Positions 10,559 through 40,477 of a DNA stretch of 63,439 bases are shown in pieces; position 1 is the first letter of the stretch, and each line of letters begins with the position of its first letter. Made by a program: the position numbers and the translations under genes. This DNA comes from an uncultured Acidimicrobiaceae bacterium (GTDB taxonomy: Bacteria; Actinomycetota; Acidimicrobiia; Spongiisociales; ZC4RG35): positions 1-63,439 of the forward strand of contig CAZYCX010000003.1 of NCBI GenBank assembly GCA_964645875.1, written 5' to 3'. A model generated the notes under the pieces. It did no database searches, was not told the DNA's origin, and saw only the letters and a program-made list of their open reading frames with translations.

Positions 10559-13500
10559 GTGGCCAGTCCAGGAGGAAACCTCGCAGGAGAGCGGCGAGTC
10601 GTCACCGCCCTGTTCTGTGACGTCGTCGGCTCCACCTCGATCGCGGAGACCCTCGATCCCGAGGATTGGAGCGAGATGGTCTCCGGAGCGATCGACACCA
10701 TGGGCATGGTGATCGACCGCTTCGGAGGCACCGTCACCGATTTCGCCGGAGACGGTCTCGTCGCCCTGTTCGGAGCGCCCGTGGCCCACGAGGACGACCC
10801 CTACCGCGCGGTGAGATCCGGGCTGGCGATCGTCGAGGAGATGCGGAGCGCCCGCGCCCATGGTGGCGTGCTGGAGGTGCGCGTCGGGATCCACACCGGG
10901 CTGGTGGTCGTCGGTGACGTGACCGCAGGACACCGCAACACCTATTCGGCGCTGGGCGACACCCTCAACGTGGCCGCCCGTCTCCAGGCGGTCGCCGATC
11001 CGGGATCGGTCGTGATCTCGTCCGAGACCCGGCGTCTCCTGGGCTCCGACGTCGAGGCGAGACTGGTCGGCCCGACCGAGCTCAAAGGTCGCCAGGAGCC
11101 GGTCGTGGTCTACCAGGTGACCAGCGCCAGCGGGAGTGACCAGCGGCGACGTGGCCTTCCCGGGTTGACCAGCCCGATGGTGGGTCGGCAGAACGAGCTG
11201 GCGACGATGGAGAAACTGGCCATGGCCAGCGCCGCCGGAACCGGACGGGTCGCCGCGGTGCTGGGGGAGCCGGGGGTGGGCAAGAGCCGGCTGCTCCGCG
11301 AGGTCGGGAAGCGAGCCCGCCAATCTGAAGACACGCTTTGGGCAGTCGGCACCTGCGTCGCATTCGACGACGAGCTCCCATATCACCTGGCCAGTTCGCT
11401 GCTTCGCTCACTCGCCGGAGTCGGTTCGTCCGAGTCGCCAGAGGTCGTCGGCAAGGCCCTCGACGACCTCTTGGAGCGAGCCGAGGCGGGCGAGCATGGT
11501 GTGGCCTTGAAACGCCTCGTCGGAGTCGAGGGCGGCGACGAACAGTCGACGGCCGAGGCGTTGAGGGACGAGTACTCGAGGTGTCTCCGCGCCGTCGTAT
11601 CCGGGTTGGCGAGGAAAAACCGGCTCGTCCTGGTGTGCGAGGACGCTCACTGGGCCGATGCCTCCTCCACCGAGCTCATCGCCGACCTGATGTCGACTGT
11701 CCCTTCCCTCCCGGTGCTGATGCTCCTGGTGATGAGACCTGACCGCGGCTCAACCGGGTGGAGTCTTCTCGAGACGGCTCGTCGCGAACTGGCGGAGTCT
11801 CTCACCGAGATCCGGCTGGCCCCTCTCGACGAGGTCGACAGCCGCAACCTCGTGTCCAATCTGCTCGAGGTCGAGTCACTCCCCCCGACGTTGCGCAGGC
11901 TCGTGCTCGACAAGGCGGAGGGCAACCCTTTCTTCCTCGAAGAGGTGGTGCGGATGCTCATCGAAGGAGATCTCGTCGAGCATCGCGATGGGCGGTGGAT
12001 CGGACGCGACGACATCGGCGACCTCGACGTTCCGGAGACGATCGAAGGTCTGCTGGTCTCCCGTATCGACATGCTGGGCCCTGACTTGCGCCGAGCCGGG
12101 CGGGTGGCGTCGGTGATCGGCCGTCGTTTCACCGCACGGCTCTTCGACCAGGTATATGGCACCCGGTCCGAGGAGGAGCGTTCCAGCCTCCATCCCCATC
12201 TCGCCGGTCTCGAGTCGCACGGCATGGTCCAGCTCGAGGAGATCGATCCCGACCTGGAGTTCTCCTTCCGCCACGCCCTGATCCACGACGTCATGTACCG
12301 GGGCCTGTTGCGAAAGGAACGCCGCCAGCTCCATGGGGAAGTCGCCGCCGCGATCGAGAAGGTCCACGCCGACCGGGTCGAGGAGCTGGCACCCTCCCTC
12401 GCCCGCCACTATGCGGAAGCCGGAGTCCCTGACAAGGCGGTTCGCTACTTCTTCTCCGCCGGCCGGCACGCCCTGGCCCAGGGGGCTCGGGTCGAGGCCG
12501 CCCGGTTCTTCACCCGAGCCCAGAAGCTCCTGGAGGCCGACCCCGATTCCGATCCGAGAGACCTGATCGATGCGGTCCTCGGCCGTCTCGGTGCGGGCCG
12601 GGCATTCATCCCTGGACAGGAGGCGATCGGGCTCATCGAAGGTGTGCTTCCGACCGCCGAGGATCTCGACGACCCGAACCGACTGGCCCGGCTCTACGAG
12701 CGTCTCATCTGGACCCGCGGAATACAGGGAGAGTCGTACGCCAATCCCGAGTACCGGGCTCAACTCGACAGGGGTTATGCCCTGACCCCACGTCTCACGG
12801 ATACCGGTACGGCCGGATTGCTCCACGCCATGATGGGCGATGCGTTCCGGTCGGCCGATGAATACGAGGCGTCAGTCGAGCCACTCTCGAACGCGGTGGA
12901 CGCTCTCGAGGACGTGGGCCGGCTCAGTGAAGCCTCCTACAACGCCGCCATGCTCGCCGACTCGCTGACCCAGGTGGGCCGTTTCGAGGAGGCGATGGCG
13001 GCTGTCGACCGGTCACATGACCTGGGGGAGAGGAGCGGCGACCCGAACACGGTGGCGGACGCCGACATCATCCGCGGCTCGATCGCGGCCGATAAGGGAG
13101 ATCTCGAGGAGGCCTTGGAGTACACGAGGAGGGGCATCGAGGGCGCCGAGGAGTACGGGAACACCTTCTGCAATCTGGCCGGCAACTTCAAGCTCGCCGA
13201 TCAGCAGCTCCGCCTGGGTGACGTCGACTCGGCCATCACCCACCTGGAGAAGAGCACGGGGCTGGCCCAGTACTGCGACGCCGGAGGCTACGAGGCCCTG
13301 GGCCAGGCTTGGCTGGCCATGGCCCGGTCACGAACCGGCGACCTCCGTCCCGGAGACTTCGACGTGCCGCTGGAGAACGCCGTCGCCTCCGGCAGCCGCA
13401 GCATGGAGGGCCTGGTGCGGCTCCGACGGGCGATCGCATTCGCCGACGCGGGCCAGGGCGAGAATGCCCGTCCCGATTTCGAACGAGCGATCGAGTTGTT

Positions 13501-13663
13501 CGCCGACTATGGAGGTCTTCCCAACCTGGCTCGGGCCCACCACGCCTACGGGCAAGCCCTCGACTCGGTGGGCCGATCCGACGAGGCGGTCGTGCATCTG
13601 CGCAAGGCCGAGGAGATCTTCGAGGAGCTCGGGATCACTCCCGACCCGGTGACCGCGGCCTGA
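10559..13663 (+). CDS. Class III adenylate/guanylate cyclase - AAA/STAND ATPase - TPR multidomain protein
   Basis: Cyclase core VVTALFCDVVGSTSIAE...FAGDGLVALFGAP...VRVGIHTGLVVVGDV...GDTLNVAARL. Walker A GEPGVGKSRLL. Long helical/TPR-like C-terminus. No LuxR HTH. Confidence 0.88.
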   Translation: MASPGGNLAGERRVVTALFCDVVGSTSIAETLDPEDWSEMVSGAIDTMGMVIDRFGGTVTDFAGDGLVALFGAPVAHEDDPYRAVRSGLAIVEEMRSARAHGGVLEVRVGIHTGLVVVGDVTAGHRNTYSALGDTLNVAARLQAVADPGSVVISSETRRLLGSDVEARLVGPTELKGRQEPVVVYQVTSASGSDQRRRGLPGLTSPMVGRQNELATMEKLAMASAAGTGRVAAVLGEPGVGKSRLLREVGKRARQSEDTLWAVGTCVAFDDELPYHLASSLLRSLAGVGSSESPEVVGKALDDLLERAEAGEHGVALKRLVGVEGGDEQSTAEALRDEYSRCLRAVVSGLARKNRLVLVCEDAHWADASSTELIADLMSTVPSLPVLMLLVMRPDRGSTGWSLLETARRELAESLTEIRLAPLDEVDSRNLVSNLLEVESLPPTLRRLVLDKAEGNPFFLEEVVRMLIEGDLVEHRDGRWIGRDDIGDLDVPETIEGLLVSRIDMLGPDLRRAGRVASVIGRRFTARLFDQVYGTRSEEERSSLHPHLAGLESHGMVQLEEIDPDLEFSFRHALIHDVMYRGLLRKERRQLHGEVAAAIEKVHADRVEELAPSLARHYAEAGVPDKAVRYFFSAGRHALAQGARVEAARFFTRAQKLLEADPDSDPRDLIDAVLGRLGAGRAFIPGQEAIGLIEGVLPTAEDLDDPNRLARLYERLIWTRGIQGESYANPEYRAQLDRGYALTPRLTDTGTAGLLHAMMGDAFRSADEYEASVEPLSNAVDALEDVGRLSEASYNAAMLADSLTQVGRFEEAMAAVDRSHDLGERSGDPNTVADADIIRGSIAADKGDLEEALEYTRRGIEGAEEYGNTFCNLAGNFKLADQQLRLGDVDSAITHLEKSTGLAQYCDAGGYEALGQAWLAMARSRTGDLRPGDFDVPLENAVASGSRSMEGLVRLRRAIAFADAGQGENARPDFERAIELFADYGGLPNLARAHHAYGQALDSVGRSDEAVVHLRKAEEIFEELGITPDPVTAA

Positions 13664-24832: not shown

Positions 24833-27166
24833 GTGATATCAGTACTCCTCTTCTGTGCCCTCGTGGCCGCTGTCTGCGGAGCGTTGGGCAGACGTCTGGG
24901 CACGCGGGTCTTCCTGCTCGGCGCACTGGCGCCTGCCGCCATGATCGCCTGGCTCGTCGTTGCCAGGTCGGGCGGCGAGGACGTCGTGACCGAGGGGCTG
25001 TCCTGGCTCCCCGTCCTGGGCTTGGACCTCGACTTCCGACTCGATGGTCTCGGCAGTCTGATGACGGTCCTGATCGGTGGGATCGGGGTTCTGATCTTTG
25101 TCTACGCGTGGCGATACTTCGGCTCGCGACCAGGCCTGGGCCGATTCGCGGCCTATTTGGTGACCTTCGCCACTTCGATGTTCGGGCTGGTGGTGGCGGA
25201 CAACTTCCTCCTCCTCTTCATCTTCTGGGAGCTCACGTCCATCACTTCCTACCTGTTGATCGGATTCGATGACGAGAGCGCCGCGGCACGCACCGGCGCC
25301 CTGCAGGCACTCCTGGTGACCGGCTTGGGTGGATTGGCGATGCTCGGTGGGATCGTCCTGATGGCCCAGGCCGGCGGGACCTACAGCTTGTCCGAGCTCC
25401 TCGCCGATCCTCCTACCCAGACGACGGCATTGGCCGGGCTGGCTCTCGTGCTGCTCGGCGCCTTCACCAAGTCGGCGCAGTTCCCCTTCCACTTCTGGCT
25501 TCCAGGTGCCATGAGTGCACCGACCCCGGTCAGCGCCTATCTGCACTCGGCCACCATGGTGAAGGCGGGGATCTATCTGATCGCCCGTCTCGCCCCTGTC
25601 TATGCGCTGCTGGTCTCCTGGTGGCGCCCCACCCTCGTCGTCGTCGGGCTCCTCACCATGCTGGTGGGAGGTTGGAGAGCCCTGACCCAGCGCGACCTGA
25701 AGCTGCTGCTGGCTCAGGGGACCGTCTCACAGCTCGGTTTCATCGTGGTGCTGGTCGGAGTCGGCATTCCCGAGCTCACGTTCGCCGGGGTGGCGATGAT
25801 CCTCGCCCACGCCATCTTCAAAGCTGCCCTCTTCATGGTGGCCGGGATCGTGGACCACCAGGCTCACACCCGCGACATCCGGCGTCTCAGTGGCCTCGGT
25901 CGCATGATGCCCGCCACGTTCGGCCTGGCCATCGTGGCCACCCTCTCGATGATGGGAGTCCCTGGCCTCCTGGGGTTCGTCAGCAAGGAGGCAGCCCTCG
26001 AGGGTTTGGTTCACGGGGGCCTGGGGTGGACCACCCTGGGTGTGGTCGCCGGGTCGGCGTTGACGGTCGCCTACGGGTTGCGCTTTCTGTCGGGTGGGTT
26101 CATGGCGAAGCCCGAGAGCCAGACCGACCAGCCGGTCGACGTCGGGATCTCTCCCCCTCGTCCCACGTTCTTGATCGCTCCGATCGTCCTGGTGGTGGTC
26201 ACGGTGGCGGTAGGACTGGCCCCGGCGCTGGTCGACGACATGGTCGTCTCAGCCGCGGGATCCGTCGACCCGGTGGCGACGCGGTACCACCTCGCCGCCT
26301 GGCATGGGCTCGGCGTCCCGGTCGGCTTGTCCGCTCTGGCCATCGCCGCGGGGTGGATGGTATGGCGGTGGCCCTTGCAGGGGCTTCGGCGGATCACCAG
26401 CCGGGCGCCCGATGCCACTCATGTCTATGCATCGACTCTCACCGGGATCAACCGGTTGGCCGACCGGGTCACGGCGGTGGTCCAGGGAGGCTCTCTGCCG
26501 GTGTATCTGGCTGTGATCATGGTGGTGACGGTGATAGCTCCGGGCATGCTGATCGTCAGGAATTGGCTCCCGCCGCCGGCCTTCACGTTCGCCGAGTCAC
26601 CCGTCCAGGGGGTTACCGCAGCGCTGGTCGTCGTGGCCGCGCTCGCCGCCATCGCCGCGAGCCGGAGGTTGGCCGCGGTTCTGTTCCTGGGAGCGGTCGG
26701 CTACGGGGTAGCCGTGCTCTTCGTCATTCAGGGCGCACCAGACCTCGCGCTGACACAACTCCTCATCGAGACCCTCGTCCTCACGCTGTTCATCCTGGTG
26801 TTGCGGGTCCTTCCCCGCAGGTTCGAGGTGGTCCAGTCACGTATCCGCAGAGTGGTGCGGATCGCGATCTCTTTGGGCGTGGGGGTGTTCGCCGGCGCAT
26901 TCGCCCTGATGGCCGCCGCCGGGCGGCAGGCACCATCACTCGCTGATGAGTACCTGAGCCGCGCCGAGCCGGAAGGAGGGGGGACGAACGTCGTCAACGT
27001 GATCCTCACCGACTTCAGGGCACTGGACACTCTCGGGGAGATAACCGTCCTCGCGGTGGTGGCCATGGGTGTGATGGCCCTGCTGATGGGGCGTCATCGC
27101 CCGGGAGGCGGCGACGGGGACGATGTCGATGGGCTCGTCGAGGGAGATCGGAGGCTCGACCGATGA
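24833..27166 (+). CDS. mrpA: Na+/H+ (monovalent cation/proton) antiporter subunit A
   Basis: 777 aa, NuoL-like polytopic protein (WELTSITSYLLIGF, FPFHFWLPGAM). Confidence 0.93.
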   Translation: MISVLLFCALVAAVCGALGRRLGTRVFLLGALAPAAMIAWLVVARSGGEDVVTEGLSWLPVLGLDLDFRLDGLGSLMTVLIGGIGVLIFVYAWRYFGSRPGLGRFAAYLVTFATSMFGLVVADNFLLLFIFWELTSITSYLLIGFDDESAAARTGALQALLVTGLGGLAMLGGIVLMAQAGGTYSLSELLADPPTQTTALAGLALVLLGAFTKSAQFPFHFWLPGAMSAPTPVSAYLHSATMVKAGIYLIARLAPVYALLVSWWRPTLVVVGLLTMLVGGWRALTQRDLKLLLAQGTVSQLGFIVVLVGVGIPELTFAGVAMILAHAIFKAALFMVAGIVDHQAHTRDIRRLSGLGRMMPATFGLAIVATLSMMGVPGLLGFVSKEAALEGLVHGGLGWTTLGVVAGSALTVAYGLRFLSGGFMAKPESQTDQPVDVGISPPRPTFLIAPIVLVVVTVAVGLAPALVDDMVVSAAGSVDPVATRYHLAAWHGLGVPVGLSALAIAAGWMVWRWPLQGLRRITSRAPDATHVYASTLTGINRLADRVTAVVQGGSLPVYLAVIMVVTVIAPGMLIVRNWLPPPAFTFAESPVQGVTAALVVVAALAAIAASRRLAAVLFLGAVGYGVAVLFVIQGAPDLALTQLLIETLVLTLFILVLRVLPRRFEVVQSRIRRVVRIAISLGVGVFAGAFALMAAAGRQAPSLADEYLSRAEPEGGGTNVVNVILTDFRALDTLGEITVLAVVAMGVMALLMGRHRPGGGDGDDVDGLVEGDRRLDR

Positions 27167-27594
27167 TCCACCGCTCGTTCATTCTCGACACGCTGGTCGA
27201 TGTGATCGTACGCACCGCACTGGTCTTCTCCTTGTTCCTCCTCTTCGCAGGTCACAACTCACCTGGCGGTGGTTTCGTAGCCGGCCTCGTCTTCGGCATT
27301 GCGCTGATCCTCAAGTACGTGGCTGGGGGCATCGAGCAGATGCAAGAGATCCTCCCGATGAGCGCCGAGACCATGCTCGCCTCGGGTCTCTCGTTGTCGA
27401 TACTCACCGGCATCGCCGGGTGGCTGTGGGGAGAGGCGTTCCTCGAGAGCACCTACATCGAAGTCGAACTTCCGCTTCTCGGCGCCCTCAAGGCCAGCTC
27501 CACGCTTCCGTTCGACATCGGCGTCTTTGCCATCGTGATCGGCCTGGTCGCCGCTCTGGTGGTCGCCTTCGGGACCGATGAGGACGTTGAATGA
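27163..27594 (+). CDS. mrpB: Antiporter subunit B (MnhB)
   Basis: 143 aa, GHNSPGGGFVAGL motif. ATGA overlap with mrpA. Confidence 0.9.
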   Translation: MIHRSFILDTLVDVIVRTALVFSLFLLFAGHNSPGGGFVAGLVFGIALILKYVAGGIEQMQEILPMSAETMLASGLSLSILTGIAGWLWGEAFLESTYIEVELPLLGALKASSTLPFDIGVFAIVIGLVAALVVAFGTDEDVE

Positions 27595-28003
27595 TCGTCG
27601 TCATGGTCCTCGCGGTGGCGGTCCTCTACGGGACGGGCGCATACCTGCTTCTGCAGCGGAATCTGAGCCGGATCGTCATTGGGCTCGCGCTGCTCGGCCA
27701 CGGCGCAAACCTGTTGTTGTTGATGGCAGGAGGGCGGGCGGGAGACGCCCCCCTCGTCGGCGAGAACGGCGGACCGTTCGCCGACCCCCTTCCGCAGGCC
27801 CTGGCCCTGACCGCGATCGTCATCACTTTCGGTGTGAGCGCGTTTCTGCTGGCCCTCGCGTATCGGAGTTGGACTCTGGCCCGGTCCGATGAGGTCGAAG
27901 ACGACATCGAAGACCGGCGCATCGCTGCGATGATCGCGGCCCGGCGGGCCGGCTCGGAATTCGACGACGACACGGGAGACGAGACCGGTGAGGAGCCCCC
28001 GCC

Positions 28004-28007
<4 letters not shown>
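27591..28007 (+). CDS. mrpC: Antiporter subunit C (NuoK-like) with acidic C-terminal tail
   Basis: YLLLQRNLSRIVIGLALLGHGANLLLL. ATGA overlap. Confidence 0.9.
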
Positions 28008-29493
<1,486 letters not shown>

Positions 29494-29497
<4 letters not shown>

Positions 29498-30009
29498 AAC
29501 GGGTTGTGATCGTGGCGTGGCTGACCGCGGTTTGGGTGACCCTGTGGGAGGCGCTCTCGTGGGCGAACATCCTGGGAGGGGTGGTGGTAGCGGGCGCCGT
29601 CGTCTATCTGCTGCCCCCAAAGGCGACCCGCTCCGAGACCGGCCTCAACCTGTTCGCCGCATTGAAGCTGCTCATCTACTTCATTCGGGAGTTGATCGCG
29701 GCCTCCGGCCAGGTCGCCTGGGAGGTGATCACACCGCGTAATCGGATCAACGCCGCCGTGGTGTCGGTTCGTCTCGACAGTCGGATCGCCGGCATCATCA
29801 CGTCTGTGGCCAGCATGGTGTCCCTCACTCCGGGGACGGTGACTCTCGAGGTCGACGAGGAGAACTCGACCCTGTTCATCCACGTCCTCCATCTCAAGTC
29901 CGTGGAACAGACCCGAGACTCGGTTCGTCGTCTCGAGCGTCTCACGATGGGGGCTTTCCCGGTCCGTTCAACAGCAACGCCCAGCTCGTCCGGGGAGGCT
30001 CCGACATGA
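29494..30009 (+). CDS. mrpE: Antiporter subunit E
   Basis: 171 aa, position and MnhE-like pattern (LTPGTVTLEVDEENSTLFIHVL). ATGA overlap. Confidence 0.85.
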
Positions 30010-30269
30010 TCGAAGTGGCCACTACGATCGCCTTCGCCCTGCTCGGCGTGGCGGCACTGCTCTGTGTGGTCAGGCTCGTGAGAGGGGAGGGGCTCGCCGA
30101 CCGCATCGTCGCTCTCGATACGCTGCTGCTCATGGTGGTCAGCGGCCTCGCCGTGCAGGCAGCCATCACCGGGGAGGACACTTATCTCGACGTCATGGTG
30201 GTGGCGGCCCTGCTCGCCTTCACCGGCACCGCCATGGTGGCCAACTTCATCGAGAGGAGAGGGTCGTGA
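30006..30269 (+). CDS. mrpF: Antiporter subunit F
   Basis: 87 aa, RLVRGEGLADRIVALDTL motif. ATGA overlap. Confidence 0.85.
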   Translation: MIEVATTIAFALLGVAALLCVVRLVRGEGLADRIVALDTLLLMVVSGLAVQAAITGEDTYLDVMVVAALLAFTGTAMVANFIERRGS

Positions 30270-30616
30270 TGGAACCGTTGGCCTCGATCCTCATCGTTGC
30301 TGGAGCCGTGCTCGCCCTTCTCGCCGCCTTCGGCCTGCAGCGGTTCGACGACGTGTTCGCCAGGATGCACTCCGCCACCAAGCCGGCGACACTCGGGCTG
30401 ATCCTCATCCTGTCGGGAGCAGCTTTCATCCTCCCGGTCCCCGGTGCGGTGGCCAAGCTCCTCCTCGTCGTCATGCTCCAGTTCATCACCGCACCCATCG
30501 CCGCCCATCTCGTCGGACGGGCCGCCTTCCGCACCGGCCAGGAACTGAGCCGGGACACGATGGTCGTCGAGGAGGCGGAGTACATAAACACTCACCCCAA
30601 GCTCATCGAAGAGTGA
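30266..30616 (+). CDS. mrpG: Antiporter subunit G
   Basis: 116 aa, FGLQRFDDVFARMHSATKPATLG motif. GTGA overlap. Confidence 0.88.
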   Translation: MMEPLASILIVAGAVLALLAAFGLQRFDDVFARMHSATKPATLGLILILSGAAFILPVPGAVAKLLLVVMLQFITAPIAAHLVGRAAFRTGQELSRDTMVVEEAEYINTHPKLIEE

Positions 30617-30623
30617 GTGTTGA

Positions 30624-31415
30624 TCAGCCGGCGCGGGCGGTGACCGTGACCGAGGTGGCGATACGGTCGTGGCGTGATTCGGGGACCAGCCTGCGCATCA
30701 GGTCGATGAGGTCGTCATCGAAGAGCGGATAGCCGCTGGCCTCGTCGATGCCGAATGGGACCCTTGCCACGACTTCGACATCGGTGAAACCCACCTTCTC
30801 CATTTTCGAGACGAAGACACGCTCCGCCAGGGCTCCCGACACTCACCCGGCCCAGGCCGACGGGTGCACGAGGATCTCCGATGGCAGTTCCTCCTCTTTG
30901 ATCGTCAGGTCGGATACGCACAGCCGACCACCTGGCCTCAGGATGCGTCTCGCCTCGGCGAAGACCCGGCTCTTTCGGGCGGTGAGATTGATGGTCCCGT
31001 TGGAGATGACCACGTCGGTCTCGGCGTCGTCGAAGGGCAGGTCGTCGATTTCCGCCCGGACGAATTCGACGTTCTCGTACCCCGAGTCGGCGGCGATGCG
31101 ACGAGCCCTCTGCACCATCGAGTCGAGGAAGTCGACCCCGATGACCGATCCGGCAGCACCCACCTCGTCGGAGGCGAGGAGAACGTCCATCCCCGCTCCA
31201 CAGCCGAGATCGACGACCGTCTCACCCTTCGAGAGTGCGGCATGGCGTACCGGGTCGCCCACTCCCATGGCCCACTGTCTCGCCTCCTCGGGGACGGCGG
31301 CGAGCTGCTCTGGGTCGTAGAGGCGGCCCGCCGGGTCGGCGGGGGCATCGACGGCGGTATAGGCGTCACGGACCAGAGCCTGGACCTCCTCCCTGTACAT
31401 GAGATCTCTGGTCAT
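30624..31415 (-). CDS. ArsM-fold SAM-dependent methyltransferase with in-frame TGA (30843-30845), candidate selenoprotein (MT1)
   Basis: SAM motif VVDLGCGAGMDVL and DVVISNGTINL. The two listed ORFs (30843..31415 and 30624..30842) are contiguous and in the same frame, separated only by TGA: ...HPSAWAG-TGA-VSGALAERVFVSKMEKVGFTDVEV..., which aligns to the ArsM motif W-x-G-C-[ILV]-A-G-A-L. The tail has good GC3 coding character. Confidence 0.7.
30810..30828 (-). promoter_or_regulatory. Candidate SECIS-like hairpin downstream of the MT1 UGA
   Basis: mRNA GGCGGAG-CGUGU-CUUCGUC forms 7 bp including one G-U. The apical loop starts 24 nt from the U of UGA. Confidence 0.35.
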
Positions 31416-31654
31416 CGGGCTCCGTCAGCCTCCAACTCGTCGATCAGACGCTCGAAGCGTTGCCTCAGGTCGGGAGGCATCTCGACCGTCGGTCCTCTCA
31501 TCATGAAACCTCGCATCTCCTCGGCGAACTCCATCTCCCCACAGCACCGTCGGCACAGGGCGAGATGCTGTTCGACCCTCTCCCGTTCCACGGGCTCGAC
31601 CTCCCCTTCGACGTAGTCCCACAGTTGTCTCACGGCCTCGGTGCAGTCGATCAT
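31412..31654 (-). CDS. Soluble ZAS-family (RsrA-like) anti-sigma factor
   Basis: 80 aa from MIDCTEAV. Cys4 plus H30-x3-C34-x2-C37 (HLALCRRCC). No TM segment. ATGA overlaps with the sigma gene (31651-31654) and with MT1 (31412-31415). Confidence 0.85.
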   Translation of the reverse strand: MIDCTEAVRQLWDYVEGEVEPVERERVEQHLALCRRCCGEMEFAEEMRGFMMRGPTVEMPPDLRQRFERLIDELEADGAR

Positions 31655-32235
31655 GACGGCGACTCCTCTTTCTCCCGCAGCAGGTCTCTCTCCTCCGCGT
31701 AATCCCACAGTTCCTTCTCGAAGAACTTCCGGCCGCGATGCAGCCATGACAACACCGTGTTGCGGGGCGCTCCCAGCATCCGGGACACGGATTCGACGTC
31801 GAGGCCCTCCATGTGTACCAGGACCAATGGGACGCGGTACATCGGTTTGATCCGGTCGAGAACCGCCCAGACATCTTCCTCTGAGAACGAGTGGAGGAAG
31901 TCGACGTGGACGGTGTCCGAGTACGGCCAGGGATCCTCGTCGGCGATGGTTCGATAGAGCGAGTACCCCGAAATGTCCTCCACGGGTGTCTCGTCCGGCC
32001 CGCTCGACTCGCGTCTGAAGCTGTCCCGAGCGCAGTTCACCAGGATGGTCCTGAACCAGCCCGGCGCCGCTTCGAGGTCACGCAGGTCGTCGAACGCCTG
32101 ATAGGCCTTGATCAGGCACTCCTGGACCACATCCTCGGCCCTGGGGCCGCTGAGACGGCGCGCCAGCGCGTAGAGCCAGGGAAGCTGTTGGCGAGCCACC
32201 TGCTGGAAGCTGGTCCCTTCCGAGCTCATCGCCAT
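31651..32235 (-). CDS. ECF-type RNA polymerase sigma-70 family factor
   Basis: Region 2 (AEDVVQECLIKAYQAF...WFRTILVNCARDSFRR) and region 4 (VPLVLVHMEGLDVESVSRMLGAPRNTVLSWLHRGRK). Confidence 0.9.
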   Translation of the reverse strand: MAMSSEGTSFQQVARQQLPWLYALARRLSGPRAEDVVQECLIKAYQAFDDLRDLEAAPGWFRTILVNCARDSFRRESSGPDETPVEDISGYSLYRTIADEDPWPYSDTVHVDFLHSFSEEDVWAVLDRIKPMYRVPLVLVHMEGLDVESVSRMLGAPRNTVLSWLHRGRKFFEKELWDYAEERDLLREKEESPS

Positions 32236-32244: not shown

Positions 32245-33048
32245 CTAGGCAAGCGAGTCGGGCCGGTTGGGGCGTCGACCTCGAATCGGAACGCCGAAGG
32301 TTCCGTATTTCTTGGCTCTGGCCTCCCCCGGGGCACCACCGAAAGTGTCCACCCTGGGGCCGAACTCGACACCGACCAGGCCTGCTCTCTCGATCGTCGC
32401 CTTCCACCCTGCACCCGGCAGGGCACCGGCGATTCAGCCAGTCCAGAGATCGATGTCCCTCTGGGCTTCCTCCGGAATGGGCTTTTCGACCACGATGTCG
32501 GCGATCTGGAACCATCCCCCCGGTCTGAGGACTCGCATCACCTCTCGATAGGCACCGAGCTTGTCCGGCACCAGGTTGAGGACCCCGTTGGAAATGACCA
32601 CGTCGACGGACTCGTCCTCGATCGGTAGGTCCTCGGCCAGCCCCTGCCGGAATTCGAGGTTCTCCAGGCCCATCATCTTCGCGGCGTCACCGGCGCGATC
32701 GAGCATGTCGGGGGTCATGTCCACCCCGATCACTTCTCCGTTGGTGCCGACAGCGCGCGCCGCGATCACCGAGTCGAGCCCACCACCCGCGCCGACGTCG
32801 ACCACCGTGGCGTCTTCCGGGGGCAGACCCCAATGAAACGGGTTGGCGACTCCGGCGAAGGCCTCCATCACCCGGTCGGGAATGCCCTCGAGGGACGCAA
32901 CCGGGTATCCGATGTGATCCAGGGCCTTCTTCCCGGTGAAGAAGTGGTACTCGGCCGACGGCTGGGTGGCCACCTCCCGGTACTTGGCTTGGATGCCCTC
33001 CCTGAGGAGGTCTTCATCGACCACGGCTGCCTTCGCGTGCTCGATCAT
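32245..33048 (-). CDS. ArsM-fold SAM-dependent methyltransferase with in-frame TGA (32434-32436), candidate selenoprotein (MT2)
   Basis: VVDVGAGGGLDSV and DVVISNGVLNL. Read through, the sequence is ...RDIDLWTG-TGA-IAGALPGAGWKATIERAGLVGVEFGPRVDTFGGAPGEARAKKYGTFGV... ending at TAG 32245-32247, in frame (189 nt after the TGA). That stop is only 9 nt before the sigma start. Confidence 0.7.
32405..32425 (-). promoter_or_regulatory. Candidate SECIS-like hairpin downstream of the MT2 UGA
   Basis: mRNA UGCCCUG-CCGGGUG-CAGGGUG forms 7 bp including two G-U. The apical loop starts 18 nt from the U of UGA. Confidence 0.35.
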
Positions 33049-33124: not shown

Positions 33125-33514
33125 TCACGTCCGGCCCATCAGCCGGTCGACGGTGATCTCGATGGCGACCCGATCGGGGTTCTCCCGCGCCGGGCGATAA
33201 CGGGCCTCGAATCCACTCACCGCTCTCGCTATCCCGTCAGGATCCCGTACCACCCGCGCCTCGCCCTCGAGGGTGAGCCACCGTGGCCCGTCGACCTGGC
33301 AAACCGCGACGCGACCGTGCCTTTCGGTGTTCTTGACCTTCTGCGTATTGTCCGAGCTGATGATCCGGACCAATCCGGCATCGGCGTCGTAGGCGAATGC
33401 GACGGCGACGACATGGGGAGTCCCGTCCGGGCGGATCGTGGTCAGAGTGCCCAGGTGACGCTCCGAAAGGAACGCCTTCTCGGTGTCGGTCAGGTCGGCG
33501 GTCGTTCTCGGCAT
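33125..33514 (-). CDS. PPOX-class (pyridoxamine 5-phosphate oxidase fold) probable F420/FMN-dependent protein
   Basis: FLSERHLGTLTTIRPDGTPHVVAVAFAYD...VRIISSDNTQKVKN...RVAVCQVDGPRWLTLEGEARV. Start set at MPRTTADL (ATG 33514). Confidence 0.8.
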   Translation of the reverse strand: MPRTTADLTDTEKAFLSERHLGTLTTIRPDGTPHVVAVAFAYDADAGLVRIISSDNTQKVKNTERHGRVAVCQVDGPRWLTLEGEARVVRDPDGIARAVSGFEARYRPARENPDRVAIEITVDRLMGRT

Positions 33515-34427
33515 GCCGGGCACGGTAACCAGGGAGACGCTATTGACCGATAGGGAACAGATCGAGACCACCTACCAGGAGATACAGTCGGCTTTCTGTG
33601 CCGCTGTCGAGGTGATCGACGGGCAGGAGACGTTCGGTGTCGACGACTGGGAACGGCCGGGAGGCGGTGGCGGGATCACACGCATCCTGTCGGGCGCGGG
33701 TCACGTCGAGAAGGCGGCAGTCAACTTCAGTGCCGTGGAAGGAGCCACTCCGAAGGCGCTCTCCGAGCGGATGGCCGTCGGCAGCTCTCGGTTCTTCGCC
33801 ACCGGTGTGTCCACCATCGTCCATCCCCGCAACCCTCTCGCCCCGACCTTCCACGCCAACATCCGCTACTTCGAGACCGACACCGGTCACTCCTGGTTCG
33901 GAGGGGGAGCCGACCTGACCCCTCACTACCTGTTCGAGACCGACGCCATTCACTTCCACCGGACGTTGAAGACGGTCTGTGACAGGCATCCGGTGGCGGA
34001 CTACCGCGTCTGGAAGCAGGCATGCGACGAGTACTTCTACCTGCCCCACCGGGGCGAGGCGCGCGGCATCGGGGGGATCTTCTTCGACCATCTCACAGAT
34101 CGTCCCGACGAGATCTGGGCTTACCAGCGCGAGCTCGGGCACAGCCTGACCGATCTCTATCTGCCCATCCTGACCGCACGTCTCGACGAGGAGCACGGAG
34201 AGCGCGAGCGCGAGTGGCAGGAGGTGCGCCGGGGACGATATGCCGAGTTCAACCTGGTTTGGGATCGCGGCACCAGGTTCGGTCTCGAGACCTCGGGCCG
34301 AACCGAGTCCATCCTGGCCTCCTTGCCACCCCGGGCCCGCTGGGTCTACGGGCACGAACCGGAGCCGGGAAGTCGCGAAGCGGCGCTCCTGGAACTGGTC
34401 CGGGCACCACCCCGTGACTGGGTCTGA
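33513..34427 (+). CDS. hemF: Oxygen-dependent coproporphyrinogen III oxidase
   Basis: DDWERPGGGGGITRIL, AAVNFS, VHPRNPLAPTFHANIRYFE, WFGGGADLTPHY, GIGGIFFD. The start is uncertain (ATG 33513 or TTG 33543). Confidence 0.9.
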   Translation: MPGTVTRETLLTDREQIETTYQEIQSAFCAAVEVIDGQETFGVDDWERPGGGGGITRILSGAGHVEKAAVNFSAVEGATPKALSERMAVGSSRFFATGVSTIVHPRNPLAPTFHANIRYFETDTGHSWFGGGADLTPHYLFETDAIHFHRTLKTVCDRHPVADYRVWKQACDEYFYLPHRGEARGIGGIFFDHLTDRPDEIWAYQRELGHSLTDLYLPILTARLDEEHGEREREWQEVRRGRYAEFNLVWDRGTRFGLETSGRTESILASLPPRARWVYGHEPEPGSREAALLELVRAPPRDWV

Positions 34428-34480
34428 CACAGAAGCGGAAGACCTGGATCGAATTCGTCCCCGTCCTTTTTGCCGACTCT

Positions 34481-35686
34481 GTGTCGGACCTACGCGCCGT
34501 TACGGTCGTCCCGTCAGCTCGAAGGATCGAGACTTTGGAGCTATCGGCCGCAAGCTTCTCCTACCCGGAACACGACGGCGCCACCCGCGCCGAGATCGCA
34601 GGGTCGCTGCTCCGCGGAGCCGGCCCGAAGGAGGGATTCGTGCTCTCCACTTGCATCCGCGTCGAAGTCGCAGTGCCCGGGTCGGACGAACAACTCAGAG
34701 ACGCCCTGACCGATCTCTTCGGAGAGGGGATGGATGTAGCGCCGCAGATCCGGGTGGGCGAGGCGGCGGCGACCCATCTCTATCGCATCGCCGCCGGTCT
34801 GGAATCCCCCATCCTCGGGGAGCAGGAGATCCTCACCCAGTTCCGACAGACCCTGATCGAGGCCGAGGAGGCCGGTCGGGTCGGGGGCCTGTTCGCCCGT
34901 CTCCTCGAGTCGGCCGTGTCGGTGGGGCGCCAGGCGCGGGAGCTCATCCCCGGCTCCCCCCACAACTCGATGGCGGCCGTCGCCGCCCAGGCGGTCGGCA
35001 CCGCCAACCGGGTGGCAGTCCTCGGCTCGGGGATCATGGCCACGGCGGTGGTGGAGGGCCTGTTGCTCCTGCCCGCGCCTCCCCTGGTCACCGTGGTGGC
35101 GCGTCACCCGGAGAAGGTGGCGGACCGGGACGGGGTCGAGGTGCTCCCCTTCGAGCGCGCCCGATCGGTGATAGAGGAGTTTCCCGCGGTCATATCCGCA
35201 ACCTCCGCCAAACATCGGCTCGTGGACGATCGCGCCCTCTCCGAGGCGATGTCCCGACGTCGGGATCGGCTGCTGCTGATCGACATGGCGATGCCTCCCG
35301 ACTTCAAGCCCATGGTCGAAGACGACGTCACCTACATCGCCATAGACGACCTGGCCCGCATGGCCGATCGCCGACCCCGCACGGACGAGGCCGACGCGTT
35401 CGTCGAGTCGGCGGCGACCGATGCCTACCGAAACTATCGGGAGCATCACGAGGTCGGCCCCCTCATCGGTGGTCTGATGAGCACCGCCGACGAGATAGTC
35501 GACAATGCGGTACGGCGGTTCTCCGGCCGTCTCGGAGACCCGGACGACGAAGCGGTCCTCCGTCAATCGGCGCACACGGTGGCCCGCACGCTGCTCGCCG
35601 GGCCCGTTTCCTATTTGAAGGCCGCTGGCCGGGCCCCCGAGGCCATCGAAGTCATCGCCGACGCATTCGGCGTCGACGATGGCTGA
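34481..35686 (+). CDS. hemA: Glutamyl-tRNA reductase
   Basis: VLSTCIRVEV (catalytic Cys), LESPILGEQEILTQFR, NADPH Rossmann motif VAVLGSGIMA. GTG start. Confidence 0.9.
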   Translation: MSDLRAVTVVPSARRIETLELSAASFSYPEHDGATRAEIAGSLLRGAGPKEGFVLSTCIRVEVAVPGSDEQLRDALTDLFGEGMDVAPQIRVGEAAATHLYRIAAGLESPILGEQEILTQFRQTLIEAEEAGRVGGLFARLLESAVSVGRQARELIPGSPHNSMAAVAAQAVGTANRVAVLGSGIMATAVVEGLLLLPAPPLVTVVARHPEKVADRDGVEVLPFERARSVIEEFPAVISATSAKHRLVDDRALSEAMSRRRDRLLLIDMAMPPDFKPMVEDDVTYIAIDDLARMADRRPRTDEADAFVESAATDAYRNYREHHEVGPLIGGLMSTADEIVDNAVRRFSGRLGDPDDEAVLRQSAHTVARTLLAGPVSYLKAAGRAPEAIEVIADAFGVDDG

Positions 35687-36536
35687 TCTGAGGATCGCCA
35701 CTCGTGGCTCCGACCTCGCCATGGCTCAGGCGCGCTGGGTGGCCGGGAGTCTCGAGGCTGCTCATCTTGGCCTGGAGACCACGCTCGTCGAGGTGTCGAC
35801 CACCGGGGATCGCGACCGGGTCTCGCCGGTCGCCACGCTCACAGAGGTGGGAGCTTTCGTGCGTGCCGTGCAGCAGGCGGTCCTCGAGGGGAGGGCCGAC
35901 GTCGGGGTGCACTCCTGCAAGGACCTCCCGGTCGACGGTCCTGGTGGCCTCACCGTTTTCTACCCAGAGCGCGAGGCGCCGTGGGACGTGATGTGCGGAC
36001 ACGACCTCGAGTCGCTGCCGACCGGTGCGAGAGTGGGCACCGGAAGCCCTCGTAGAGCCGCACAGTTGAAGGCTCTGCGTCCGGACCTGGTCGTCGCCGA
36101 CATTCGCGGAAACGTGGGCACACGTCTTGAGAAGATGGAGACGGGCGAATACGAAGCAGTGGTGCTCGCCGAGGCTGGGCTGCGACGACTCGGCCGTACC
36201 GGTGAGATCACGCACCGTTTCACGCTCGCCGAGATGGTCCCCGCGCCCGGCCAGGCAGCGCTGGCGGTGGAGGGACGTCGCGACGATCCGTTGCTCGACC
36301 TGCTGACAGCGATCGACGACCCTGAGACCCGACTCACCGTCGAGACCGAGCGGTCACTGCTGGGTAACACCCGTGCCGGGTGCCGCTCGGCCCTGGGTGC
36401 ACTGGCCGAGGTCCAGGAGGGCTCTATTCGAATCACCGGCTTCGTCGAGGACGAGGCGGGCTCTCGTTACGCAGTTGCCGAAGGGGCCACCCCCGAATCG
36501 GCAGCGCGGGCACTGCAGGAGGGACTGGGGCTGTGA
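35679..36536 (+). CDS. hemC: Hydroxymethylbilane synthase (porphobilinogen deaminase)
   Basis: LRIATRGSDLAMAQA, VHSCKDLP, GTGSPRRAAQL, IRGNVGTRL. 8-nt overlap with hemA. Confidence 0.93.
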   Translation: MADLRIATRGSDLAMAQARWVAGSLEAAHLGLETTLVEVSTTGDRDRVSPVATLTEVGAFVRAVQQAVLEGRADVGVHSCKDLPVDGPGGLTVFYPEREAPWDVMCGHDLESLPTGARVGTGSPRRAAQLKALRPDLVVADIRGNVGTRLEKMETGEYEAVVLAEAGLRRLGRTGEITHRFTLAEMVPAPGQAALAVEGRRDDPLLDLLTAIDDPETRLTVETERSLLGNTRAGCRSALGALAEVQEGSIRITGFVEDEAGSRYAVAEGATPESAARALQEGLGL

Positions 36537-37231
36537 CCAAACCACGTCTCGCCCTGACCAGCACACCCGAGCGGGCGGTCTCCCTGGGGGCAGTCGCCCA
36601 GAGTGCCGGCCTGGCGCCGGTCTCATTGCCCTGCATCGAGTACGTCCCCGTCGACTCCTCGATCGTCGAGATGGCGCGGGCCAGGGCCGCCGGTTGCGAC
36701 TGGCTGGTACTGACCTCGGCGCGGGCGGTGGCCACCCTCTGGCCGCGGGGAGGTATCCCCGCCGCTTCTGTGGCCGCCGTCGGGCCCGCCACCGCGGCAG
36801 CGGTGAGGACGGCAGGAGGCGACCCCAGCCTGGTCGGAGACGCCGGATCCGAAGAGTTGTTCGATCGCTTGTCAGGAGCCATCGCCGGGCAATCGGTCTT
36901 CGTTCCCCACGCCGCCGCAGCCGACCTGTCCAGGCTCGACATCTTGGAGGCGGCCGGAGCCGTCGTCGACACCATGGCCGTCTACGACGTCAGGCCGATC
37001 GCCCCTGGCGGTGACCCGGTGGAAGCGGTGGCCTTCGGCTCACCGACCGCGGTCGAGGGGTGGCTCTCCGCCCGCACTCTGGACGGGTTGGTCGTGGGGG
37101 CGATCGGAGAGACTACGAAGGCTTCACTCACAGCGCATGAGATGGCCGCAGACTTCGTTCCCGAGGAGCCCTCGTTCGAGGATTTGATCAGCCTGATCGC
37201 GGCCGGTCTGAGAGACAGGAGCACCGTATGA
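36533..37231 (+). CDS. hemD: Uroporphyrinogen-III synthase
   Basis: GTGA overlap with the hemC stop. The HemD-like two-lobe pattern (WLVLTSARAV, VAAVGPATA, AFGSPTAV) and the position in the cluster support the call. Confidence 0.8.
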   Translation: MTKPRLALTSTPERAVSLGAVAQSAGLAPVSLPCIEYVPVDSSIVEMARARAAGCDWLVLTSARAVATLWPRGGIPAASVAAVGPATAAAVRTAGGDPSLVGDAGSEELFDRLSGAIAGQSVFVPHAAAADLSRLDILEAAGAVVDTMAVYDVRPIAPGGDPVEAVAFGSPTAVEGWLSARTLDGLVVGAIGETTKASLTAHEMAADFVPEEPSFEDLISLIAAGLRDRSTV

Positions 37232-38208
37232 CACGATTCCCGGAGTTGCGGAGTCGCCGGCTCCGCCGGACCGAGGCACTGCGCCGCCAGGTGGCGGAGA
37301 CCCGTCTTCATCCCGCATCCTTCGTGTTGCCGCTCTTCGTCGTTCCCGGCAGGGATGTGAGCAACCCGATCGGATCGATGCCAGGGCATTCCCAGCTCTC
37401 GGTGGACGAGATGATCCCGGTGGTCAAGGAGGCTGCTTCTGCCGGCGTGGGAGGCGTGATCCTCTTCGGCATTCCCGAAGCCAAAGACGAGTCGGGTTCC
37501 GGGGCATGGGACGTTGCCGGGCCGGTGCCTGAGGCAATCCGCGCCATCAAGGATCAGGTGGCGGATATCACAGTGTGGGCAGACGTCTGTCTCTGTGAGT
37601 ACACCAGCCATGGCCACTGCGGCGTTCTCGATGGTGAGTCGGTGGACAACGACCGGACCCTCCCGCTCCTGGCTCAGGCTGCGATGGTCTACGCAGACGC
37701 CGGAGCCGACGTAATCGCCCCCTCCGACATGATGGACGGGCGCGTCGGTGCCATCAGGGAGGCGCTCGATTCTGCTGCCCACGAGGAGCTCGCCATCTGC
37801 TCGTATTCGGCCAAGTATGCGAGCGCCTACTACGGGCCTTTCCGGGACGCGGCCGAGTCGGCGCCCGCCTTTGGGGACCGGCGCACTCACCAGATGGACC
37901 CGCCGAATGTGCGGGAGGCTCTGGTCGAGGTTGCCCTCGATTTGGCCGAGGGTGCGGACATGGTGATGGTCAAACCGGCCGGGCCTTACCTCGACGTGAT
38001 CTCGGCAGTCCGTTCCCGCGTCGACATCCCGGTGGTGGCTTACCAGGTGTCCGGAGAGTTCTCGATGATCGAGGCCGCCGCGGCCAACGGCTGGGTCGAC
38101 GGCGACAGGGTCATGCTGGAGTCGCTGACAGCAATCGCCCGCGCCGGTGCCGGCATCACCCTCACCTACTTCGCCACCCGGGCGGCCCGGGCACTCGCCG
38201 GAGGCTGA
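37228..38208 (+). CDS. hemB: Porphobilinogen synthase (ALA dehydratase)
   Basis: RLRR...LR, LFGIP, ADVCLCEYTSHGHCG, APSDMMDGR, YSAKYASAYYGPFR, VKPA. ATGA overlap. Confidence 0.94.
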   Translation: MTRFPELRSRRLRRTEALRRQVAETRLHPASFVLPLFVVPGRDVSNPIGSMPGHSQLSVDEMIPVVKEAASAGVGGVILFGIPEAKDESGSGAWDVAGPVPEAIRAIKDQVADITVWADVCLCEYTSHGHCGVLDGESVDNDRTLPLLAQAAMVYADAGADVIAPSDMMDGRVGAIREALDSAAHEELAICSYSAKYASAYYGPFRDAAESAPAFGDRRTHQMDPPNVREALVEVALDLAEGADMVMVKPAGPYLDVISAVRSRVDIPVVAYQVSGEFSMIEAAAANGWVDGDRVMLESLTAIARAGAGITLTYFATRAARALAGG

Positions 38209-38213
38209 TCGAG

Positions 38214-39491
38214 ATGACTGCGACGAATACGGACTGGTACGAGCGTGCGGTTCGGGTGATGCCCGGGGGTGTCAACTCGCCGGTGCGTGCCTTCAAGGGA
38301 GTGGGCGGGGTGCCGCCTTTCGTGGAGAGCGCCGCCGGCGCACGTCTCACGACGCTCGACGACGGCGATCTCATCGACTTCATCGCCTCCTGGGGGGCGC
38401 TCATCCTCGGCCATGCCGAGCCCACGGTGGTGGAGGCCGTCGAGGAGGCGGCGAGAAGGGGCACGTCGTTCGGGATAACCACCAGTCAGGAGGTCGAGAT
38501 CGCCGAGCTCATCTGCGCGATGGTCCCGTCCATCGAGGTGATGCGGATGGTCAACTCGGGAACCGAGGCCACTGCTTCGGCGATACGGGTGGCGCGTGCC
38601 GCCACCGGCCGTCAGGGGATCATCAAGTTCGAGGGTTGCTACCACGGTCATGCCGACCCGTTCCTGGTCAAGGCGGGTAGCGGGGCCGCCACTCTCGGAG
38701 AGCCGGACAGTCCCGGCGTGCCCGCCGGGACCGTGGCCGACACCCGGATCGCGCGCTTCAACGATCTCGAATCGGTGGAGAAGGCCCTGGCCGAGGGTGG
38801 GATCGCCGCCGTCATAGTCGAGCCCGTTGCCGGGAACATGGGCGTCGTGCCTCCCCAGCCCGGGTTCCTCGAGGGGTTGCGACAGCTCTGCGACGACAAC
38901 GGCGCCATCCTGATCTTCGACGAGGTCATGACGGGCTTTCGTGTCGCCCGTGGCGGTGCTCAGGATCGTTACGGGGTGGCCCCCGACCTCACCTGCCTCG
39001 GCAAGATCGTCTCAGGGGGAACGCCGTCGGCGGTCTATGGAGGGCGGGAGGACCTCATGCGTCGGGTTGCCCCGGACGGCCCCGTCTACCAGGCCGGCAC
39101 ACTGGCCGGCAACCCGCTGACGGTCGCCGCCGGACTGGCAACCCTGCGGGCCATCGAGGCGAGCCCCGAGATCTATGACGAGTTGGAGTCCCTGGGGGCA
39201 GTCCTGGAGGACGAACTGGCCGGCGCCCTGACGGAGAACGGAATCGAGGGCTGTGTTCAGAGGGCCGGTGCGATGATGACGGTGTTCTTCGGCCCAACCG
39301 AGGTGCGCTCTTGGGACGAGGCCGCTCTTGTCGATCGAGACCGCTTCTCCCGTTTCTTCCACGCTGCGTATCGGTCCGGGGTCCTCCTCCCGCCGTCGCC
39401 GTTCGAAGCCCTGTTCCTGATGCGGGCACACCGCGGTGTGGTCACGGAGGCCACAGATCTCCTCGTCGAAGCAGTCGGGGCTGCCGCTTGA
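38214..39491 (+). CDS. hemL: Glutamate-1-semialdehyde 2,1-aminomutase
   Basis: MPGGVNSPVRAF, SWGALILGH, NSGTEA, ILIFDEVMTGFR, GKIVSGG. Confidence 0.94.
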   Translation: MTATNTDWYERAVRVMPGGVNSPVRAFKGVGGVPPFVESAAGARLTTLDDGDLIDFIASWGALILGHAEPTVVEAVEEAARRGTSFGITTSQEVEIAELICAMVPSIEVMRMVNSGTEATASAIRVARAATGRQGIIKFEGCYHGHADPFLVKAGSGAATLGEPDSPGVPAGTVADTRIARFNDLESVEKALAEGGIAAVIVEPVAGNMGVVPPQPGFLEGLRQLCDDNGAILIFDEVMTGFRVARGGAQDRYGVAPDLTCLGKIVSGGTPSAVYGGREDLMRRVAPDGPVYQAGTLAGNPLTVAAGLATLRAIEASPEIYDELESLGAVLEDELAGALTENGIEGCVQRAGAMMTVFFGPTEVRSWDEAALVDRDRFSRFFHAAYRSGVLLPPSPFEALFLMRAHRGVVTEATDLLVEAVGAAA

Positions 39492-40477
39492 GCCGACCCC
39501 TCCTCGACGCTCTCGCACTCCGGCCGCTGCCGCATCCACCGGTATGGATCATGCGTCAGGCCGGTCGCTACCTGCCCGAGTATCGCGCCGTCCGGGAACG
39601 GCACAGTTTCCAGGAGGTGGTGGGCACACCGGAGCTCGCCACCGAGGTGACACTGCAACCGATTCGGCGCTTCGGGATGGACGGGGCAGTGATCTTCGCC
39701 GATATCATGACCCCGCTGGAGGCCATGGGAGTCGAGATGACCTTCGACCCCGGGCCGAGGCTGAGCCCACTGACACTCACCGAAGTCGTCGACCTGCCCG
39801 TACTCGACCCGTCTCTGGTCTCCCACGTCGCGACGACGGTTCGCCTGGTGCGCGAGTCTGCGCCGGCGGAGACGGCGGTGATCGGTTTCGCCGGCGCACC
39901 GGTGACTCTCCTCGCCTATCTCCTCGAGGGTGGCGGTTCCAAGGACTTCCTGACCATGCGGGCCGCGCTGCGGGCAGATCCTCGAGCCGCTTCGGCCGCA
40001 CTGGAGAACCTGGCCCTCTCGATGAGGACCTATCTCCGCGTCCAGACCGAGTCGGGCGCCGATGTCGTTCAGCTGTTCGACACCTGGGCGGGGCTGTGTG
40101 ATCGGGACCTATTCGCCCGGATGGCGGTGCCTGCCGCCGCCCGGAGCCTCGACGACGTGGCGGCTCCGACGATCTACTTCGCCCCTGGTGCCGGGCACAC
40201 CCTCGACCTTCAGCCCGAAATCGGCGCCACCGGGTACGGAGTCGACTGGAGGACGGACCTCGAGACTGCCTTCGAGACCTTCGCCGGGCGAGCGGTCCAG
40301 GGAAACCTCGACCCGGCAGTTCTTCGCACCGACCCCGGGACGATCGGTGACGAGGTGGAATCGCTGCTCGGTCGCGCCGCAGGGCGACCCGGGCACATCA
40401 TGAACCTGGGTCATGGCATCGATCGGCACACCCCTCCCGACAACGTCGCCGCGTTCGTGGAGGCGGTCCGCTCTTGA
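39488..40477 (+). CDS. hemE: Uroporphyrinogen decarboxylase
   Basis: PPVWIMRQAGRYLPEYR, LQPIRRFGMDGAVIFADI, NLGHGI. TTG 39488 overlaps the hemL stop. The upstream ORF extension is out of context. Confidence 0.9.
   Translation: MSRPLLDALALRPLPHPPVWIMRQAGRYLPEYRAVRERHSFQEVVGTPELATEVTLQPIRRFGMDGAVIFADIMTPLEAMGVEMTFDPGPRLSPLTLTEVVDLPVLDPSLVSHVATTVRLVRESAPAETAVIGFAGAPVTLLAYLLEGGGSKDFLTMRAALRADPRAASAALENLALSMRTYLRVQTESGADVVQLFDTWAGLCDRDLFARMAVPAAARSLDDVAAPTIYFAPGAGHTLDLQPEIGATGYGVDWRTDLETAFETFAGRAVQGNLDPAVLRTDPGTIGDEVESLLGRAAGRPGHIMNLGHGIDRHTPPDNVAAFVEAVRS

Follow-up and report, generated by a model that had tools for sequence, protein, structure and literature searches.

The analyzed stretch of DNA, here called the window, comprises 63,439 nucleotides of contig CAZYCX010000003.1 from an uncultured Acidimicrobiaceae bacterium. 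On its minus strand lie four genes that are packed tightly or overlap, in the order MT2, an ECF-type sigma-70 factor, a ZAS-type anti-sigma factor, and MT1. MT1 and MT2 are paralogous ArsM-like methyltransferase genes, and each has an in-frame UGA codon at the same alignment column. The features are listed below with coordinates of the window.

32245..33048, minus strand: MT2, predicted full-length ArsM-like SAM methyltransferase selenoprotein gene; 267 codons, with selenocysteine (Sec) as codon 205
32434..32436, minus strand: in-frame UGA of MT2, probably read as Sec, as indicated by the orthologues, the distant Cys homologues and the alignment with PDB structures
32245..32433, minus strand: C-terminal extension of MT2, 62 codons and the TAG
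32397..32432, minus strand: putative bacterial SECIS of MT2, consisting of an upper hairpin and a lower stem
32425..32405, minus strand: upper hairpin of MT2, 7-8 bp, UGCCCUGC-CGGGU-GCAGGGUG
32432..32428 / 32401..32397, minus strand: lower 5-bp stem of MT2, from fold prediction
31651..32235, minus strand: ECF-type sigma-70 factor; Pfam Sigma70_r2/r4_2 on the identical gene in L002/L003, position conserved
31412..31654, minus strand: zf-HC2 (ZAS-type, HxxxCxxC) anti-sigma factor; Pfam zf-HC2, motif HLALCRRC
30624..31415, minus strand: MT1, paralogous ArsM-like methyltransferase with an in-frame UGA; TGA kept in 7 orthologues
30843..30845, minus strand: in-frame UGA of MT1, at the alignment column of the MT2 UGA
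about 30809..30829, minus strand: downstream hairpin of MT1, consensus UGGCGGAG-CGUGU-CUUCGUCA

The reading frame of MT2 begins with the ATG at 33048 and runs for 204 codons to the TGA at 32436..32434. After the TGA, 62 sense codons follow, up to the TAG at 32247..32245. The conceptual translation of 33048..32245 ends with RDIDLWTG, the TGA codon, IAGALPGAGWKATIERAGLVGVEFGPRVDTFGGAPGEARAKKYGTFGVPIRGRRPNRPDSLA and the terminal stop. The TAG is separated by 9 nt from the ATG of the sigma factor gene at 32235. A preliminary description of this DNA had proposed that MT2 stays open for 62 codons past an in-frame TGA and that this extension fills an otherwise unexplained gap of 190 nt before the sigma factor gene, and the translation bears out both proposals. 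The false "intergenic" gap is abolished when MT2 is read at full length. In the public gene calls examined, MT2 and its orthologues, and likewise MT1, end at the UGA with about 204 aa, and genes of the MT2 type are annotated as "methyltransferase domain-containing protein" of 204-208 aa.

The anti-sigma factor gene overlaps both the stop of the sigma factor gene and the start of MT1. The four-gene cassette was seen in three different genomic neighborhoods. In the window and in GCA_035514315.1 (L087), it is accompanied by heme-biosynthesis and Mrp-antiporter genes, and a PNPOx-like gene lies upstream in place of OsmC. In the two further contexts, an OsmC-family gene is found directly upstream of the cassette (L409:9058-9933, L410:1059-1625, L411:5512-6078), and this adjacency may indicate that the cassette is involved in oxidative or thiol stress. 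The conservation of the cassette together with its sigma/anti-sigma pair suggests stress-induced expression, and its recurrence in three neighborhoods would characterize it as a functional module under stress-responsive control. The flanks of the cassette in the window, at 24833-30616 (+) and 33483-41772 (+), contain a complete Mrp/Mnh-type antiporter operon and a heme-biosynthesis cluster with coproporphyrinogen oxidase, hemA, hemC, hemL, and protoporphyrinogen oxidase; the synteny is the same in L087.

A window-wide scan for coding frames split by TGA recovered, besides MT2, only MT1 and a site at 12874..12872 (-). The latter site is antisense to the ORF at 10559-13663 (+) and is probably a spurious GC3 artefact. 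In L087 (GCA_035514315.1, DATKBE010000040.1), a rhodanese gene call of 72 aa at 18536-19240 (+) ends at an in-frame TGA (…VIVYCYDDL-U-DMSPRAAARL…). Past the UGA, its frame leads into a region with a CBS domain, and a hairpin of 8 bp begins at a distance of 14 nt. This rhodanese-type gene is probably another unannotated selenoprotein gene in the same lineage. Two other features of the window were recorded. A SAM riboswitch (RF00162, 72.7 bits) is located at 55022-55110 (+), just 5' of a 382-aa ORF at 55129-56277. The ORF at 59654-61036 (-) scores 789.5 bits against the syringate O-demethylase DesA, narrowly missing the cut-off of 800, and 602 bits against the vanillate/3-O-methylgallate O-demethylase LigM, where it exceeds the cut-off; these matches suggest catabolism of lignin-derived aromatic compounds in the organism.

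Conservation of the UGA column, the downstream frame and the hairpin

Relatives of MT2 at the protein level were sought among 5.8 billion proteins. The close relatives fall into a short and a long group. Proteins of the short group are about 200-210 aa long, cover 73-76% of the query, and end in …D[IV][DN]LW[TA]G. Those of the long group are about 255-267 aa long, cover 94-97%, and contain Cys in …LWT[DA]C IAG[GA]L…. One of these Cys forms, P0013, can be aligned to the complete conceptual translation of MT2 through the junction without a gap (253 aa, 58% identity); a gapless alignment of this kind had been named in the preliminary description as a means of checking the extension. In more distant homologues from archaea, Chloroflexota, Planctomycetota, and others, the residue at the UGA column is Cys in 52 out of 52 proteins, and the codon, where it was read, is TGC or TGT.

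Orthologues were collected from one-genome-per-species contigs and represent 28 Acidimicrobiia/Actinomycetota MAGs (L007-L034), which together with the window make 29 sequences. All 29 have TGA at the identical column, at protein identities of 52-71%, and in all of them the frame continues past the TGA for 55-64 sense codons. The downstream peptide is kept as IAGALP[CG]AGW…VDTFGGA.GE..AR.FG…IRA.KP, and no conservation is seen beyond the terminal stop, which is also TGA in most orthologues. In the 29-sequence codon alignment, the median pairwise dN/dS is 0.218 for codons +11..+55 and 0.229 for the 190 codons upstream of the UGA, and the invariant Gly, Ala, and Pro positions past the UGA use all synonymous codons. 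Judged from these substitution patterns, the downstream segment of MT2 is under protein-coding constraint, at the same level as the upstream part (0.22 against 0.23).

The hairpin indicated in the preliminary description just downstream of the UGA was recovered by folding, with a stem of 7-8 bp and the loop CGGGU. Its minimum free energy is -21.3 kcal/mol over 40 nt (z -2.6), and 4 out of 200 shuffled sequences fold as well. RNAalifold on the 29 orthologues returned the same 7-bp stem, beginning 10 nt past the UGA, with the loop CGKGY. Support from covariation is thin, because only one compensatory change (C-G to G-C, in 2 sequences) is accompanied by two wobble changes, and a C.A mismatch is present in 4 out of 29 sequences. 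The codons in the hairpin, +4..+9, are nearly frozen (GCC 27/27, CTG 29/29, CCG 28/28, GCA 27/29). Among 246 six-codon windows of the alignment they show the lowest synonymous variation, 0.126 against a median of 0.508. Such a synonymous freeze is what is predicted for an RNA structure overlaid on a coding sequence, and it could be partly due to the highly conserved peptide AGALP.AGW.

In bacterial SECIS models of the bSECISearch type, the apical loop is 16-37 nt from the UGA, and G is among the first two bases of the loop. The MT2 hairpin resembles bacterial SECIS elements of the fdhF type in being inside the coding sequence and beginning about 10 nt past the UGA, and its apical loop, which is located 16-20 nt past the UGA and has G as its second base, would agree with these models. 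It differs from the SECIS elements of Escherichia coli fdhF and fdnG in its unrelated sequence and in the lack of an Rfam model; Rfam reported no SECIS family in the window and nothing covering the MT2 hairpin, its one match there being the SAM riboswitch.

In the alignment of the two paralogues, SAWAG-U-VSGAL of MT1 matches DLWTG-U-IAGAL of MT2, and the UGA column is shared. The protein identity between MT1 and MT2 is 37%. At the DNA level, the longest common word is 12 nt, and no similarity is observed near the TGA. Recent gene conversion between MT1 and MT2 is excluded because of this lack of shared words and of any likeness around the TGA. These observations uphold what the preliminary description had claimed on the second TGA and on the strong divergence of the paralogues. 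The claim that the two TGA codons arose independently was not established, as duplication of an ancestral Sec gene explains them equally well. Cys forms such as P0013 are nearer to MT2 than MT1 is, and it is possible that one ancestral Sec was followed by later Sec-to-Cys changes, or that two separate Cys-to-Sec changes occurred. Among the MT1 orthologues (8 sequences), the hairpin differs from that of MT2; it is offset by 4 nt and has the common apical loop CGUGY. At the outer end of the MT1 stem in the window, the U-A pair of the consensus has been lost (U.U).

Relationship to ArsM and to catalogued selenoproteins

When the internal stop is replaced by Cys, the products of MT1 and MT2 are both assigned by Pfam to the class I SAM methyltransferases (Methyltransf_31/11/25). 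Their best NCBIfam matches are NF008823, a model for arsenite methyltransferase, and three curated models of selenoproteins with an ArsM domain: NF041537 (ArsM/AhpD fusion), NF041536 (ArsM/DUF2284 fusion), and NF047649 (methyltransferase/UXPK-star fusion). All of these matches are below the cut-offs. The cut-off of NF008823 is 263 bits, compared with 221.1 bits for MT1 and 199.8 bits for MT2. The matches to the fusion models have e-values from 4e-65 to 7e-59 and concern the methyltransferase part only.

The best matches among solved structures are Chlamydomonas ArsM (5EVJ) and Cyanidioschyzon ArsM (4FR0/4FS8/4KW7), with an e-value of 8e-27. Residue 205 of MT2, the predicted Sec, corresponds in the alignment to Cys224 of CmArsM, an As(III) ligand within GEC[LI][AG]GAL, in accordance with the likeness between LWTG-U-IAGAL and the ArsM motif that had been recognized from the sequence alone. 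MT2 is predicted to share the fold, the domain order, and the SAM-binding motif with canonical ArsM/AS3MT enzymes (CmArsM 4FS8/4FR0/4KW7; 5EVJ). It differs from them at the two other cysteine positions and at the C-terminus. The YGCG motif with Cys72 is replaced by AGVA, and the equivalent residue is Val in 29 out of 29 MT2 orthologues and in MT1. The SNCV motif with Cys174 is replaced by SNGV; this position is occupied by Gly throughout the 29 orthologues and in MT1, while SNC is retained by all distant Cys homologues. The last 40 residues (VDTFGG..GE..AR.FG...IRA.KP) are peculiar to the MT2 subfamily. Most MT2 orthologues (L012-L034) have Cys at -19 and +7 from the Sec. In the subclade of the window (the window, L007-L011, L017), both of these cysteines are lost, so that MT2 of the window and its six close relatives contain no cysteine at all, and the predicted Sec is the sole Cys/Sec residue.

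In ArsM, Cys174 and Cys224 are the minimal pair for the binding and methylation of As(III). Canonical arsenite methylation by MT2 is doubtful because the Cys174 equivalent is gone. MT2 is predicted from these residues to be ArsM-like and not a canonical arsenite methyltransferase. Since the partner cysteines are missing, its substrate and exact chemistry probably differ from those of classical arsenite methylation. Candidate substrates would include As(III), if a small thiol assists in its binding, as well as Se, Te, Sb, and other soft electrophiles.

Selenoproteins of the arsenite S-adenosylmethyltransferase family (PRK11873) were first reported in the GOS selenoproteome (PMC2398784). A review from 2026 lists in its Table 1 an arsenite methyltransferase with a UxxG motif and three selenoproteins in which an ArsM domain is fused to another part (PMC13188914); the fusion selenoproteins are attributed to Haft & Tolstoy 2025, as cited in that review. 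By its predicted motif, U-I-A-G, MT2 is a member of this known UxxG type. As Sec-containing ArsM-type UxxG enzymes are already catalogued, MT2 offers no new principle.

MT2 and the PRK11873/NF008823 selenoproteins belong to the same class I SAM methyltransferase family and have a single Sec, placed in G-U-[IV]-[AS]-G-A-L where it replaces the C-terminal As(III)-binding cysteine, and in both a SECIS hairpin (putative in MT2) follows directly downstream inside the CDS. MT2 differs from them in its score, well under the NF008823 cut-off as given above, in the absence of the Cys72 and Cys174 equivalents, and in its occurrence in Acidimicrobiia MAGs, where two Sec paralogues flank a sigma/anti-sigma pair. 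The fusion models NF041537, NF041536, and NF047649 are the best HMM matches over the methyltransferase domain and have the same UxxG Sec position. In contrast to these fusion proteins, MT2 matches only profile positions of about 7-230 out of 283-459, scores under half of the cut-offs (e.g., 220 vs. 510), and lacks AhpD, DUF2284, the second Sec, and the UXPK-star tail. A second C-terminal Sec of the UXPK-star type was sought past the terminal stop of MT2, and none was found. The unusual traits of MT2 are the lost partner cysteines, the two Sec paralogues, and the linkage to a sigma/anti-sigma pair; they do not constitute a new category.

Decoding of the UGA and possible function

The Sec machinery was searched for in the window and in the wider class. 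In the 63-kb window, ARAGORN found no tRNA gene at all, hence no tRNA-Sec. Ten ORFs of the window have a size suited to SelA, SelB, or SelD, and NCBIfam recognized only housekeeping enzymes among them. A DNA scan with a degenerate SelA PLP motif revealed an Acidimicrobiales locus (L122) with adjacent selA and selB. Relatives of this SelA are present in at least about 70 MAGs labelled as Acidimicrobiia or relatives, and ARAGORN predicted a tRNA-Sec beside ten of the Acidimicrobiia selA loci. A tRNA-Sec pattern specific to Acidimicrobiia matches at least 120 loci, and 117 of the 120 listed were called tRNA-SeC. Among the matches listed, no assembly with selA or tRNA-Sec coincides with the 29 carrying MT2. 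Searches of 2.7 Mb of sel-gene loci with MT1 and MT2 by tblastn returned no linked copy, and in three relatives the 10 kb on either side of the cassette contain no sel genes. Universal Sec machinery was reported in Actinomarina, which also belongs to Acidimicrobiia (bioRxiv 10.64898/2026.04.03.716425). Judging from these predicted genes, the class Acidimicrobiia clearly uses Sec.

MT2 is very probably a selenoprotein gene in which the UGA at 32436..32434 is decoded as Sec. This reading, which the preliminary description had also put forward, is supported by the conserved UGA, the Cys/Sec pairing, the coding constraint, and the hairpin. An error of sequencing or assembly at the TGA has almost no probability and is regarded as refuted: of six independent Logan metagenome contigs retrieved for this organism, five contain MT2 in identical form, including the TGA and the open frame past it (the sixth stops at the TGA, where the downstream frame is unreadable), and the same codon recurs in 28 other species. 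If the TGA were a genuine stop, MT2 would either be a pseudogene or encode a truncated protein of 204 residues, and a non-coding spacer of 189 nt would follow. The public gene calls, all of which end at the TGA, and the absence of visible Sec machinery in the window are in line with such a stop. However, the frame is open and constrained in 29 out of 29 genomes, full-length Cys homologues align gaplessly through the junction, and a pseudogene would not retain the identical nonsense codon among lineages with only 52-71% identity. These observations effectively refute a genuine stop or a pseudogene, which is considered highly improbable here, in agreement with the earlier judgment that pseudogenization is unlikely.

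It is just as improbable that MT2 is a split gene composed of an N-terminal methyltransferase domain and a separately translated C-terminal piece of 62 residues. A 44-aa ORF is sometimes called in the gap (L088, L409, L410), but the first in-frame start past the TGA of the window is a GTG at codon +28, while conservation at the protein level already covers codons +1..+27, with the same residue in 84% of the pairs at +1..+10, and codon +1 runs straight on in the ArsM motif G-[C/U]-IAGAL. A somewhat higher, still small probability is assigned to read-through or reassignment of the UGA without Sec, e.g., with a suppressor or near-cognate tRNA inserting Trp, Gly, or Cys and the hairpin stimulating the read-through. 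Such decoding is compatible with the little covariation in the hairpin and with the lack of MT2-carrying assemblies among those listed with selA or tRNA-Sec. Against it, TGA terminates 36 of the 44 GC3-supported ORFs of the window as well as most MT2 orthologues; TGA is therefore an ordinary terminator, and a reassigned genetic code is excluded. Moreover, the UGA aligns only with Cys, which is the signature of Cys/Sec pairs, Sec is found at exactly the same motif in a known selenoprotein family (PMC13188914), and selA, selB, and tRNA-Sec are abundant in the class.

Under the preferred reading of the UGA as Sec, the hairpin beginning 10 nt past the UGA would recruit SelB and Sec-tRNA(Sec), and translation would yield an ArsM-like class I SAM methyltransferase of 267 residues. 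The selenolate of the Sec at the Cys224 position may hold a soft substrate atom, a metalloid or a chalcogen, near SAM. The methyl group would then be transferred from SAM to the Sec-held substrate, and both the identity of the substrate and the mode of regulation are conjectural.

A further interpretation is that the clade represents a branch of the ArsM superfamily with a function of its own, in which a lone Sec replaces the multi-cysteine As(III) site, the substrate or mechanism is another one, and two diverged Sec paralogues are under a redox-sensing ECF sigma/ZAS switch. This interpretation is tentative and, on balance, rather unlikely. If it is true, the enzyme would act on a different substrate, e.g., selenium, tellurium, antimony, or a thiol-reactive compound, or by a different mechanism, such as substrate capture by a single selenolate or a Se-methyl intermediate. 

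Independently of this interpretation, the conserved linkage of the cassette to an ECF sigma factor and a ZAS anti-sigma factor points to a regulated response to metalloids or oxidants. An ArsM-like enzyme such as MT2, in which the Cys224 position alone is kept, as Sec, and Cys72 and Cys174 are lost, lends itself to testing to what extent a single selenolate can stand in for the thiol chemistry of ArsM. The recognition of MT1 and MT2 would add two more selenoproteins per genome for this poorly studied, uncultured lineage of Acidimicrobiia.
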